From: Eubacteriales bacterium
Lineage (GTDB): Bacteria > Bacillota > Clostridia > Oscillospirales > CAG-272
Direction of reading: 5' to 3'
DNA: 64,000 nucleotides
NCBI GenBank assembly: GCA_045649045.1
Contig: JAZRPF010000051.1
Location: forward strand, 14,471 to 78,470
Part shown: positions 60,289 to 64,000 of the stretch, in pieces
Layout of the letters: each line of letters starts with the position of its first letter
Numbering within the stretch: position 1 is the first letter of the stretch
Position numbers and translations under genes: made by a program
Notes under the pieces: generated by a model
The model's database searches: none
What the model saw: the letters and a program-made list of their open reading frames with translations, nothing else
Told to the model about the DNA's origin: nothing

Positions 60289-61143
60289 TCATTCTGTTAA
60301 TTCAAGAAATCTTTTAATTTTTTCAAGCTGCTTGATTGCCGTTTTTCTTCCTATTTTGTAAGCCGCTTTCAGCTTGTCGGGATTCTTTTCAATGCGACTG
60401 ACAGGAAGCGCGCGTTCGGGACGAATCACAAACAGCTCTCCGGATTTTTCTTTTTCCTTAATATAGGAAAGCGTCGCATTGTAAACCAAATGTCTGTTTG
60501 CCACTGCCTCGACGACCTTCGGATATCGAGAGTATTTCAGCTTGATGAAGGGCATCATACGGTTTTTTGATTTCTGATAATCCTTGTGCCGTGTAAGCAC
60601 GGCAATATTTTTGTTGTAGCCGATGCTCTCAAAAAATTTGACGGGAATAGAATCCGCAATACCGCCGTCAAGCATTTTCTGTCCGTCGATTTCTACAATC
60701 TGCGAAACAAGCGGCATAGACGCCGAAGCTCGTATCCAATCAAAGCAGTGGTCGTTTCGACCTTCAAACCTGTGATAAACAGCCTTTCCGGTTTCTACAT
60801 CGGTCGCAACTACATAAAATTCCATGGGATTGCTCTCATAGGTATCAAAATCGAACAAGTCATGCTTCAAGGGAACTTCATTGTAACAAAAATCTGTGCT
60901 GTATATGTTGCCTGTTTTAAGAAGAACACGCAATCCTCCATAGCGTTTATCGCGCACAAATCTCGTATTATACCGAATGACTCGACCTATCTGCTTCGAC
61001 TTGTAGTTGACACCAAAAGCCGCGCCTGCTGATACGCCGATTGCACCGTCAAATTCGATGCCGTTTTCCATCAGTACATCCATAACACCGGCGGTAAACA
61101 TTCCTCGCATGGCACCGCCTTCCATAATTAACCCTTTTTTCAT
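60289..61143 (-). CDS. Patatin-like phospholipase
   Basis: Contains the GGAMRG oxyanion motif, GVSAGA (GxSxG nucleophile) and a later DGG (catalytic Asp). Confidence 0.85.
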   Translation of the reverse strand: MKKGLIMEGGAMRGMFTAGVMDVLMENGIEFDGAIGVSAGAAFGVNYKSKQIGRVIRYNTRFVRDKRYGGLRVLLKTGNIYSTDFCYNEVPLKHDLFDFDTYESNPMEFYVVATDVETGKAVYHRFEGRNDHCFDWIRASASMPLVSQIVEIDGQKMLDGGIADSIPVKFFESIGYNKNIAVLTRHKDYQKSKNRMMPFIKLKYSRYPKVVEAVANRHLVYNATLSYIKEKEKSGELFVIRPERALPVSRIEKNPDKLKAAYKIGRKTAIKQLEKIKRFLELTE

Positions 61144-61273
61144 CCTTCTTACCTCTTATACTTAACGCACAAAGAAAGGCAGTCATATAGAACTGCGTTC
61201 CTCCGCCGAAATGAAAGCAAATCGTCAAACAGTCAGGTATTCTGTGACTGTGGAGATTCGGTTGATGACATAT

Positions 61274-61978
61274 CTATTTCACCTTTCTGTCAGTGAGAGT
61301 CTTAAGCAACATGGAAAACGCAAGGAAGCAAAGCGCAGGATAGTAGGTTCCCATACAAGCGTGGTCTGTCCAGCTCCAAAGACCGACGAACCTATCAAGG
61401 ACAAGCATAAGGTCGGAGAAGAAGAACAGTGCGCTTGAGACGGCAATTGTTCCCGTAACGGCGTTTTTCTCCCTGATAAAATTACCAATCGCTTTACCGA
61501 GCATGGTGGAAATGATTGCTGCATAGACGATACAAACGACACGGAAAATCGCTACCTCAAAGGTAAGCAACGGGAAGAACAGAAGAAAGCAAAGACATCC
61601 GAGGAACAGTACGCCACTGATGATATAATCAAGCCTCTGCATTTTCTGCATAAAGCAGTAGGCAATGACAAAGCATATGTGTCCAATGGCAAATGCTGCC
61701 GCGCCGATAATGAAATCGTAGCCTATCAGACAATCGCCAAGGAATGCAAGGAAAAGTCCTGCAGCCATGCCGATATAAAAATTCGTGTTCGGTTGCTTTT
61801 TTTTCAAAGCATAACCGAGGTTCATCAGCCCAAGCGACGCAAACAAGCCGCTGCATATGCATTTGAGCGTGAAATTAAAGCCGTCAAGCTGATAAAAATA
61901 ATTCAATACAAATACGGTGGCAATCACAAGCAGATTGACCGCCAACATATTCTTTTGCGATTTTTTCATATTTATCAT
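61274..61978 (-). CDS. YhhN-family membrane protein (lysoplasmalogenase family)
   Basis: Polytopic membrane protein with LAFLGDCLIGYDFIIGAAAFAIGHICFVIAY. This matches the YhhN/TMEM86 GDxxL...G..F..H..Y core. Confidence 0.8.
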   Translation of the reverse strand: MINMKKSQKNMLAVNLLVIATVFVLNYFYQLDGFNFTLKCICSGLFASLGLMNLGYALKKKQPNTNFYIGMAAGLFLAFLGDCLIGYDFIIGAAAFAIGHICFVIAYCFMQKMQRLDYIISGVLFLGCLCFLLFFPLLTFEVAIFRVVCIVYAAIISTMLGKAIGNFIREKNAVTGTIAVSSALFFFSDLMLVLDRFVGLWSWTDHACMGTYYPALCFLAFSMLLKTLTDRKVK

Positions 61979-61981
61979 AAA

Positions 61982-63364
61982 TTACCTCAAGAAAATGTGC
62001 AATAGCTTTTCATAAAATTTGCTCTTATAGGGCTGATACCGCATCGGCAAGTCGAGCCATGTCTTTTTATCCACGATGGATTTATAATGCGAGAAAGCAT
62101 CAAATCCATCCTTACCGTGATAGCTTCCCATACCGCTTTCTCCCACGCCACCAAAGCCCATAGCACTTGTGGCAAGGTGAATGACCACATCGTTGATACA
62201 TCCTCCGCCGTAAGAAAGCTCGGTGGTGACTCTCCTTTTATGCTTTTTATTGCTTGTAAACAGATAGAGTGCAAGAGGCTTATCCTTCGCCTTTAGCCCG
62301 TCAACCACACTGTCAAAATCGTCAAAGGTGAGGATTGGCATAATGGGGCCGAAGATTTCTTCACCCATAACAGCATCATCGTATGTCACATTATCCATAA
62401 CCGTGGGCGCAATCTGACAGGTAGCAGAGTTAGTCTTTCCTCCGATAACGACCTTCTTCTCATCAATCAAGCCGCACAGACGGGCAAAATGCTTTTCATT
62501 GATAATCCTGCCGTAATCCTTGTTTTGAAGAGGATTTTCTCCATACTGCTTGTCAATTTCTGCAGCAACGGCTTTGACAAACGCATCCTTGACAGATTTC
62601 TCACAGAGAATATAATCAGGAGCCACACAGGTCTGTCCGCAGTTAAGATATTTTCCAAACACGATGCGCTTTGCCGCAAGGTTGATATTCGCACTTGCAT
62701 CAACGATGCAGGGGCTTTTTCCTCCAAGCTCCAGAACAGCCGGAGTCAGATGCTCTGCTGCACGGCGAAGCACCTCCTTGCCGACCGCCTGACTTCCCGT
62801 AAAGAACACGAAGTCGAACTTTTGGTCAAGAAGCGCGGTATTTTCGGCTCTGCCGCCTGTGACTACTGCCACATATTCGGGTTCAAAGCATTCCTTGATG
62901 ATTTTTTCAATAATCCTGCTCGTTGCAGGCGAGTAGGCACTCGGCTTGACAATTGCCGTGTTGCCGGCGGCAATGGCATCTGCAAGCGGGTCAAGTGTCA
63001 GAAGAAAGGGGTAGTTCCAAGGGCTCATAATGAGCGTATTTCCATAAGGAACGGGCTGCTTGTAGCTGTGCGAACAAAACTGCGCGAGAGGTGTTGCCAC
63101 CGTCCTTCTCTTTGTAAATTTTGCCGTATGCTTCATCATATAGGAAATTTCGGTGAGCACCAAGCCTGACTCACACATAAAGCCTTCGTAATGGCTTTTT
63201 CCAAGGTCTGCTGTCAGTGCATCATTGATTTCTCTCTGATGCCCTTTGACCGCCGCATATAGCTTTTTGAGCTGCTCAATACGGAACTTGACGGGAATCG
63301 TCGCGCCGCTTCTGTAATAGGCTCTTTGCTTTTCAAGCAAGTTCTGTATTTCTTGATTTGTCAT
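61982..63364 (-). CDS. NAD(P)-dependent aldehyde dehydrogenase, class 3 (fatty-aldehyde dehydrogenase-like)
   Basis: SPWNYPFLLT, IVKPSAYSP, LELGGKSPCIVD, NCGQTCVAPDYILC and EEIFGPI are collinear with ALDH3-type enzymes. Confidence 0.9.
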   Translation of the reverse strand: MTNQEIQNLLEKQRAYYRSGATIPVKFRIEQLKKLYAAVKGHQREINDALTADLGKSHYEGFMCESGLVLTEISYMMKHTAKFTKRRTVATPLAQFCSHSYKQPVPYGNTLIMSPWNYPFLLTLDPLADAIAAGNTAIVKPSAYSPATSRIIEKIIKECFEPEYVAVVTGGRAENTALLDQKFDFVFFTGSQAVGKEVLRRAAEHLTPAVLELGGKSPCIVDASANINLAAKRIVFGKYLNCGQTCVAPDYILCEKSVKDAFVKAVAAEIDKQYGENPLQNKDYGRIINEKHFARLCGLIDEKKVVIGGKTNSATCQIAPTVMDNVTYDDAVMGEEIFGPIMPILTFDDFDSVVDGLKAKDKPLALYLFTSNKKHKRRVTTELSYGGGCINDVVIHLATSAMGFGGVGESGMGSYHGKDGFDAFSHYKSIVDKKTWLDLPMRYQPYKSKFYEKLLHIFLR

Positions 63365-63381
63365 ATCCTCCTCCGAATATA

Positions 63382-64000
63382 TTACGCTTTTTCAAAGCCT
63401 ACAAGCACACCGCCCTTTTCGGCGTAAAAGCTGCATAAACCCCTGAATTGATGTATTTCAATGGTTACATTCTCAAATCTGGCGAGAATCAGCTCCTTGA
63501 GCTGTAGCGCCGCCGACTCGTTCTGGCAGTGACCGATACTGATTTTGCCGGAACGGAAGCCCTCTGCTTCAAGGTCACGAACGAGCGTCTCAAGAGAGCG
63601 TCTTTCACCTCTGCACTTGTGCATCGGCTCAAGTGTTCCCTCGTCGCTCGCTTTGCCTACAATGCAAATACCGGCAATTCCAACGAGCTTTGCCACGATA
63701 GGCGAAACTCTGCCGTTGTTTGCAAAGTTCTTTAACGACTTCAGCATGAACACAAGCCCTGTTTTCTGAAGATATGCCGTTATCTTATCACAGATTTCTT
63801 CGTAAGGCATATGGCTTTCAATCAATTCTTCAAGCTTTTCAATTATCAAGGAAATTTCAGCTCCGGCAGAAAGCGTATCAATCACGAAAACGCGTTTCCC
63901 TTCGTTTTCCGATTCATATATCTGCTTGGCGGCACAAGCGGAATTGTAGCTTCCCGACAAACCGCTCGTAATCGTCACACAGAAAATATCGTCAGCACTG
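63382..64000 (-). CDS. DegV-family fatty-acid-binding protein, partial (N-terminus beyond the window end)
   Basis: ...VTITSGLSGSYNSACAAKQ...VFVIDTLSAGAEISLII... is the typical DegV pattern. The frame stays open upstream of the ORF-track start (an internal GTG) through to position 64000. Confidence 0.85.
   Translation of the reverse strand, partial: SADDIFCVTITSGLSGSYNSACAAKQIYESENEGKRVFVIDTLSAGAEISLIIEKLEELIESHMPYEEICDKITAYLQKTGLVFMLKSLKNFANNGRVSPIVAKLVGIAGICIVGKASDEGTLEPMHKCRGERRSLETLVRDLEAEGFRSGKISIGHCQNESAALQLKELILARFENVTIEIHQFRGLCSFYAEKGGVLVGFEKA

Follow-up and report, generated by a model that had tools for sequence, protein, structure and literature searches.

In mammals, plasmalogens are catabolised by phospholipase A2 (PLA2), the lysoplasmalogenases TMEM86A/B, the class-3 aldehyde dehydrogenase ALDH3A2 (FALDH) and an acyl-CoA synthetase, acting in that order. 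In bacteria, Jackson et al. reportedly identified the plasmalogen synthesis genes plsA/plsR of Clostridium perfringens in 2021. The YhhN proteins of Legionella pneumophila (Lpg1991) and Mycobacterium tuberculosis (Rv1401) are proven lysoplasmalogenases that have been studied as single genes detoxifying host lysolipids (PMC9052158). Neither operons nor aldehyde dehydrogenases come up in the M. tuberculosis lysoplasmalogenase paper (PMC9052158), and the topics of degradation, catabolism and lysoplasmalogenase are absent from a review of bacterial plasmalogens published in 2022. Here we describe a minus-strand gene cluster at the end of a 64,000-nt stretch of DNA (the window; G000 contig C51:14471-78470) from a Eubacteriales bacterium. 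A first-pass annotation had read four genes of this cluster, encoding a DegV protein, a class-3 aldehyde dehydrogenase (ALDH3), a YhhN-family protein and a patatin, as a complete four-step plasmalogen salvage route, and had known of no described bacterial operon for the entire degradative or remodelling path. Our literature search agreed on the latter point, returning no paper on a bacterial YhhN-aldehyde dehydrogenase operon or a bacterial plasmalogen-catabolic gene cluster. The central idea of the annotation holds up; its patatin step, like its claim to a complete route, does not.

We hold with moderate confidence, from comparative sequence analysis, that the operon is built around the fatty aldehyde that YhhN would free from lysoplasmalogens, which ALDH3, an iron-containing alcohol dehydrogenase (Fe-ADH) and DegV would handle under the control of a MarR-type regulator. 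The open reading frames (ORFs) confirmed four co-directional genes on the minus strand, separated by 17 nt (degV-ALDH3), 3 nt (ALDH3-YhhN) and 130 nt (YhhN-patatin), and Pfam matches well above the cut-offs confirmed the assignments to the DegV, aldehyde dehydrogenase, YhhN and patatin families (Table 1). When the contig was read on past the window end, a 401-amino-acid (aa) Fe-ADH was found, with a 4-nt overlap between its stop and the degV start, and 67 nt further upstream a 167-aa MarR-type regulator; both were missing from the first-pass annotation because they lie just outside the window. Beyond MarR, a membrane pyrophosphatase gene is transcribed divergently. The four reported genes are the 3' two-thirds of a six-gene minus-strand unit with the order MarR, Fe-ADH, DegV, ALDH3, YhhN and patatin, closed by a hairpin. 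A GAGG lies 6 nt ahead of the YhhN ATG, within the end of the ALDH3 gene, and YhhN appears to be translationally coupled to ALDH3.

The conservation of this linkage was assessed in a survey in which one genome per species was scanned and 80 loci were retrieved with one YhhN peptide motif (from a 17-sequence alignment). Annotation relied on tblastn together with an unbiased clustering of the neighbouring ORFs, and all 80 loci came from metagenome-assembled genomes (MAGs) labelled gut or faecal isolates, mainly from ruminants and deer. Counts were made on 64 loci, each with at least 1.5 kb upstream and at least 1.1 kb downstream of YhhN. ALDH3 was adjacent to YhhN in 33/64 loci, with YhhN identities of 41-90%, and lay within 3.2 kb on the same strand in 34/64. 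The corresponding numbers (adjacent; within 3.2 kb on the same strand) were 3/64 and 33/64 for Fe-ADH, 5/64 and 19/64 for MarR, 2/64 and 9/64 for DegV, and 8/64 and 8/64 for an ApbA/PanE-type reductase. Next to ALDH3, Fe-ADH and MarR were the most constant partners. A carbonyl oxidoreductase gene (ALDH3, Fe-ADH or ApbA) adjoined YhhN in 44/64 loci. In a maximum-likelihood YhhN tree, ALDH3-linked genes fell on both sides of the midpoint root, and the well-supported branches required at least 4 changes of DegV state. DegV occupied the slot between Fe-ADH and ALDH3 or that between MarR and Fe-ADH, stood immediately ahead of YhhN, or else came after it, with 25% to 81% identity to the source DegV; these four positions and differing DegV lineages argue for repeated recruitment. 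A metagenomic homolog of the locus (L003; YhhN 73% identity) carried the MarR-FeADH-DegV-ALDH3-YhhN order followed by a phospholipase D (PLD)-like gene in the place of patatin, and this shared order sat in a different genomic context from that of the source genome. In a sample of 201 genomes of the order, in which class-3 aldehyde dehydrogenases were called at E<=1e-80, ALDH3 was directly upstream of YhhN in two further genomes (G178, YhhN 47% identity, with Fe-ADH; G074, 31%). The synteny check proposed by the first-pass annotation, run here on gut Clostridia loci, thus bore out the YhhN-ALDH3 and DegV linkage but not the linkage of patatin. These results indicate that the conserved, mobile core is MarR-FeADH-ALDH3-YhhN and that DegV has been recruited to it repeatedly.

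A gene fusion provided a further line of evidence. At locus L120 (4559-7593), MarR is followed by P0214, a 631-aa protein in which a YhhN domain (39% identical to the source YhhN) precedes a complete Fe-ADH. Next, overlapping P0214 by 8 nt, comes an ALDH3 (56% identity to the source ALDH3), which runs off the contig end. By gene content, this fusion locus is the same module in another arrangement. The fusion would place Fe-ADH, and hence the YhhN C-terminus, on the cytoplasmic side, which fits an even helix number with the C-terminus inside. Adjacency and fusion together give good comparative-genomic support to the YhhN-ALDH3-(Fe-ADH)-DegV module.

The source YhhN is a candidate lysoplasmalogenase on the evidence of family membership and conserved residues. 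Its PF07947 match covers profile positions 6-181 of 182, and NCBI names its close homologs 'lysoplasmalogenase'. The proposed active site of TMEM86A comprises K43, G81, D82, H104, G182, S189, D190 and Y213, and in TMEM86A/B mutation of each of the eight proposed residues to alanine affected activity for all except G81 (TMEM86B G87) (PMC11994398). Mapped by motif and spacing, the source YhhN keeps 7/8 proposed active-site residues of the human lysoplasmalogenases, with K39, G81, D82, H100, S188, D189 and Y212 matching TMEM86A K43, G81, D82, H104, S189, D190 and Y213, respectively. D82, H100, S188, D189 and Y212 were invariant in a 58-sequence alignment reaching down to 30% identity, in which K39 was nearly invariant; G81 was invariant among 17 closer homologs. 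A crude hydropathy scan showed YhhN to be hydrophobic over most of residues 8-200, at a resolution that did not separate the helices for comparison with the family's eight. A PDB sequence search found no solved YhhN structure, its sole match being noise (E=0.33).

The class-3 assignment of the aldehyde dehydrogenase was likewise confirmed. By sequence, the best solved-structure matches of ALDH3 were S. aureus AldH (6k0z; E 3e-134), human FALDH (4qgk) and ALDH3A1 (3sza). A Foldseek search with the AlphaFold model (mean pLDDT 86) returned 6k10 (TM 0.83, 46% identity) and 4qgk (TM 0.82, 42% identity), and the top solved-structure matches were all of class 3. The catalytic residues N112, E207, C241 and E331 of FALDH (PMC4109017) correspond to N117, E212, C246 and E336 of ALDH3. 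FALDH also has a gatekeeper helix (446-456), removal of which lowered activity on C12-C16 aldehydes and left activity on C8 unchanged (PMC4109017). A C-terminal helix is predicted at 449-459 of ALDH3, with a pLDDT of only 55-65 in the monomer model, and would occupy the FALDH gatekeeper position in sequence. A conserved amphipathic segment (RYQPY..KxY.KLL..FLR) closes the proteins of this subfamily, and the hydrophobic pattern KxxYxKLLxxFLR was conserved in 27 orthologs. A C-terminal transmembrane anchor such as that of human FALDH was absent from ALDH3, which ends at residue 460, right after the helix. These comparisons indicate that ALDH3 is nearest to lipid-aldehyde enzymes. Identity with the benzaldehyde dehydrogenase MdlD was rejected on its score (435 bits; cut-off 550). 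The partner Fe-ADH matched the N- and C-terminal domains of its family, PF00465 (146 bits) and PF25137 (163 bits), and reached no NCBIfam equivalog cut-off.

The operon DegV matched PF02645 with 130 bits for the partial protein in the window and 166 bits for the full 278-aa protein, and the latter matched TIGR00762 with 156 bits (cut-off 99.7). It is not the FakB1 equivalog (63 bits; cut-off 350). The source genome encodes only two DegV genes, together with FakA/YloV on contig C43 (557 bits; cut-off 396) and PlsY. One further locus, L108 (G165:C75:20000-30000, about 3510-7418), carried a MarR-FeADH-ALDH3-DegV operon without YhhN; this gene set ties the ALDH3 product to a fatty-acid binder, and shows that the link from alcohol or aldehyde to FakB can stand alone. 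Our literature search found no paper joining FakB to a fatty aldehyde or to plasmalogen.

The genome context suggested a use for such a link. The source genome (1.6 Mb, 96% complete) yielded no ketoacyl-ACP synthase in a search in which 14/14 control genomes scored, and tblastn with the fab/acc cluster of a genome of the same family found no AccA/D, AccC, FabF, FabD or FabK in it. Ketoacyl synthase was missing in 9/10 sampled genomes of the family, indicating a family trait, and the family looks like one of fatty-acid-auxotrophic gut Clostridia. A gene pair on contig C2 (Table 1) agrees with the described architecture of the PlsA/PlsR plasmalogen synthase (PMC12838417). With no fatty acid synthesis of type II (FASII), with FakA and PlsY, and with this PlsA/PlsR-type pair, the source organism is probably auxotrophic for fatty acids and probably makes plasmalogens out of diacyl lipids.

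Table 1. Positions of the genes and other elements discussed; numbering is that of the window unless a contig is named.
Feature	Position	Strand	Description
degV	63382 to beyond 64000; full gene to window-equivalent 64218	minus	205 of 278 codons (3' part) inside the window
ALDH3, class-3 aldehyde dehydrogenase	61982-63364	minus	460 aa; PF00171 (Aldedh), 295 bits
YhhN-family membrane protein, candidate lysoplasmalogenase	61274-61978	minus	234 aa; PF07947, 89 bits (cut-off 25.6)
YhhN-patatin spacer	61144-61273	minus	130 nt; weak hairpin (61196-61179, 6-bp stem) and patatin ribosome-binding site AAGAGG only
Patatin-like phospholipase with C-terminal DUF6363	60289-61143	minus	284 aa; PF01734, 74 bits; PF19890, 87.5 bits
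GC-rich 14-bp hairpin after patatin	60219-60252	not assigned	common to convergent genes; likely transcription-unit end
DAGK_cat lipid kinase	12235-13335	plus	366 aa
GDPD glycerophosphodiesterase	13376-14098	plus	240 aa
PlsA/PlsR-type pair	G000 contig C2:16157-20463, outside the window		1014 aa (two BcrAD_BadFG and DUF2229), then 436 aa (DUF2229 and HGD-D)

Family, residues, synteny and fusion are the basis of each step of the mechanism that we propose. YhhN would hydrolyse the vinyl-ether bond of a lysoplasmalogen, as its family and conserved residues suggest, and so split the lipid into a long-chain fatty aldehyde plus a glycerophospho-headgroup. A substrate made by the cell itself is possible, given the PlsA/PlsR-type synthase in the genome, as is one taken from the plasmalogen-rich gut. 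On the cytoplasmic side, ALDH3 would oxidise the reactive aldehyde to a fatty acid, and Fe-ADH would interconvert fatty aldehyde and fatty alcohol. The two enzymes together could carry out a redox-neutral dismutation in this anaerobe; alternatively, Fe-ADH could bring free fatty alcohols into the route. This aldehyde-handling step draws on the conserved adjacency, the YhhN::Fe-ADH fusion and the lipid-aldehyde character of ALDH3. The operon DegV/FakB would then bind the fatty acid, FakA, encoded elsewhere, would phosphorylate it, and PlsY would use the acyl-phosphate, a step that matters because a genome without FASII must build its membrane from scavenged acyl chains. MarR may sense a lipid ligand, which is a guess. 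A more specific version can be offered tentatively, namely a nutritional pathway in FASII-less gut Clostridia, in which the vinyl-ether chains of plasmalogens, otherwise resistant to lipases, would be drawn from other anaerobes nearby, from the host or from turnover within the cell and would pass through aldehyde and acid to a dedicated FakB and into the membrane, while the fused or adjacent Fe-ADH would buffer the toxic aldehyde by dismutation.

The surveyed loci also varied in the genes that accompany YhhN. One YhhN clade (L075-L083, L086) lacked ALDH3 and Fe-ADH and carried an ApbA/PanE-type NAD(P) reductase (ApbA by Pfam) immediately downstream, which may take the place of the aldehyde-handling enzyme as a non-orthologous substitute. 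A 567-aa AMP-binding acyl-activating enzyme was encoded directly upstream of MarR on the same strand at L028, L031, L032 and L042, in operons without DegV, and may provide an alternative fatty-acid activation where DegV is missing from the operon. A trio named from sequence, comprising an OYE-type flavin reductase with an FAD domain and AcnX-like large and small subunits, recurred beside the module at L022, L026, L035, L050, L056 and L098; that it acts on unsaturated chains is a guess. A linear-amide hydrolase, secreted and belonging to the choloylglycine hydrolase/AAT family, was encoded within or beside the module at three loci in total, including L059, where it separates ALDH3 from YhhN, and L035, where it lies upstream of Fe-ADH; a role as an N-acyl amide (ceramide-like) hydrolase is possible.

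Several observations weigh against the aldehyde-centred reading. The 80 loci are interrelated and were drawn from one peptide motif, so that the counts are not independent events. The coupling is not obligatory, and 15/64 loci had no module gene at all near YhhN. In the order sample, a class-3 aldehyde dehydrogenase was called in only 3/9 YhhN-positive genomes, YhhN was absent from 30/33 ALDH3-positive genomes, and a PlsA-like gene was present in 6/9 YhhN-positive and 11/20 YhhN-negative genomes, with no clear association. The eighth proposed site, TMEM86A G182, is Ser181 in the source YhhN and Gly in the homolog consensus, and the mapping onto TMEM86A is indirect, by motif and spacing rather than by direct alignment. 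The top NCBIfam match of ALDH3 was the benzaldehyde dehydrogenase MdlD (NF045701), below its cut-off, and Fe-ADH resembled generic group III enzymes (lactaldehyde reductase, 1,3-propanediol dehydrogenase), with no long-chain sign. The two genes were adjacent in 3/3 of the order genomes that had both YhhN and ALDH3, and these 3 genomes compare with 1.5 expected. This genome-level co-occurrence is weak, and therefore the case rests on adjacency and fusion rather than on the phyletic profile.

A first rival, which we consider unlikely, is that Fe-ADH and ALDH3, with or without DegV, supply FakB with fatty acids made from free long-chain alcohols and aldehydes of the diet (e.g., from plant waxes or from plasmalogens hydrolysed by acid), YhhN being an optional accessory and plasmalogen not the main substrate. 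YhhN was rare, being found in 9/201 genomes of the order and in 0/10 genomes of the same family, compared with 33/201 genomes for ALDH3 orthologs. ALDH3 orthologs were often paired with Fe-ADH in the absence of YhhN (L107, L117) and also stood alone (L109, L110), indicating that the Fe-ADH-ALDH3 pair is the broader unit, of which YhhN is one partner. The YhhN-less MarR-FeADH-ALDH3-DegV operon of L108, the probable fatty-acid auxotrophy of the source organism and the origin of all carriers from gut or faecal MAGs, mainly of herbivores, also favour this rival. However, this rival leaves unexplained the coupling of YhhN to ALDH3, with its 3-nt gap in the source genome and the adjacency of the two genes in 33/64 loci, as well as the YhhN::Fe-ADH fusion and the presence of a different carbonyl reductase, ApbA, in the same place in other YhhN clades. 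Two oxidations in succession would moreover be awkward in a fermenting anaerobe.

The first-pass annotation had assigned patatin the first step of its route, making lysoplasmalogen for YhhN to cleave, ALDH3 to oxidise and DegV to reactivate, so that all four genes would form one dedicated pathway. We consider this distinctly improbable. In the source genome patatin is co-directional with YhhN, and its motifs are intact (oxyanion GGAMRG at residue 9, nucleophile GVSAG at residue 36, catalytic DGG at residue 159). No strong terminator was found in the 130-nt spacer, and a strong one follows patatin; read-through is thus possible, and patatin may be co-transcribed in this genome and may produce the lyso-substrate there. 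A different lipid enzyme, the PLD-like protein, is encoded downstream of YhhN in L003 and L035. Nevertheless, patatin adjoined YhhN in 1/64 loci (within 3.2 kb on the same strand, 1/64), that of the source genome, so the four-step route in one operon is not a conserved unit. In the nearest relative (L022), a patatin with 89% identity lies ~5 kb downstream, behind inserted OYE, AcnX and ApbA genes. A recurrent lipase beside the module was looked for and rejected, as no family recurred and the downstream neighbours were unrelated; they included an 822-aa membrane protein, ABC transporters, a PHP-like protein, an OYE-type reductase with AcnX-like subunits, and an ApbA reductase (ApbA assigned by Pfam; the transporters, the PHP-like protein and the OYE/AcnX-like genes named from sequence). 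By its distribution, patatin is a lineage-specific neighbour outside the conserved module.

We regard as highly improbable a last rival, in which a MarR-controlled Fe-ADH/ALDH pair detoxifies soluble or aromatic plant aldehydes and YhhN has an unrelated membrane role, since, although MdlD is the best NCBIfam match of ALDH3, Fe-ADH is nearest to short-chain enzymes and MarR regulators often control detoxification genes, the MdlD score is under its cut-off, the structural and sequence neighbours of ALDH3 are first of all lipid-aldehyde enzymes, its predicted hydrophobic C-terminal helix is conserved, the module has repeatedly recruited the fatty-acid-binding DegV, several loci have an acyl-CoA-synthetase-type gene directly upstream of MarR, and YhhN is fused to Fe-ADH.

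An Rfam scan of the locus gave no match. Horizontal transfer judged by base composition was rejected, because the operon GC (0.459, the 21st percentile of genome windows) is unremarkable. The first-pass annotation had also pointed to a glycerophosphodiesterase and a lipid kinase that could handle the headgroup products. Both genes exist, 40 nt apart on the plus strand, and the DAGK_cat/GDPD pair could process lipid headgroup products, yet it lies 46 kb from the operon and is unlinked to it.

Should the nutritional version prove true, no bacterial operon for plasmalogen catabolism and no connection of aldehyde metabolism with the Fak system would, as far as our literature search shows, have been described before it. 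The MarR-FeADH-ALDH3-YhhN(-DegV) module puts forward specific candidate genes for the turnover of plasmalogens in gut anaerobes, suggests a way for organisms lacking fatty acid synthesis to recover ether-linked chains, and predicts a path from fatty aldehyde oxidation to FakB/FakA acyl-phosphate formation.

What is already known, from mammals, is the enzyme families and the reaction order. The operon is proposed to follow the same order of chemistry as mammalian plasmalogen catabolism, with the YhhN/TMEM86 and class-3 aldehyde dehydrogenase families at the central steps and a predicted aldehyde dehydrogenase C-terminal helix at the gatekeeper position. Unlike in mammals, the source genes lie in one bacterial operon with a MarR regulator, Fe-ADH is an equally constant partner, the acid would go to the FakB/FakA acyl-phosphate system rather than to CoA, ALDH3 has no transmembrane anchor, and the phospholipase step is not conserved. 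Compared with Legionella Lpg1991 and M. tuberculosis Rv1401, the source YhhN belongs to the same Pfam family, is of similar size (~230-260 aa) and would likewise be a polytopic membrane protein with conserved polar residues in transmembrane helices (PMC9052158). Unlike those two, which were studied as single genes, it comes from a commensal of the gut, a strict anaerobe by which plasmalogens are probably made. S. aureus AldH (6k0z/6k10) is the closest solved structure to ALDH3, with an alignment that runs over the full length including the C-terminus, and both are soluble bacterial class-3 enzymes. AldH acts in staphyloxanthin synthesis on a C30 lipid aldehyde; its genomic context differs, and its substrate would be a carotenoid aldehyde, whereas a saturated or monounsaturated fatty aldehyde is presumed for ALDH3. 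Finally, although the operon DegV is not a FakB1 equivalog, the locus shares with the FakA/FakB system, by which Firmicutes incorporate exogenous fatty acids, a DegV-family protein in the operon and FakA and PlsY in the genome.

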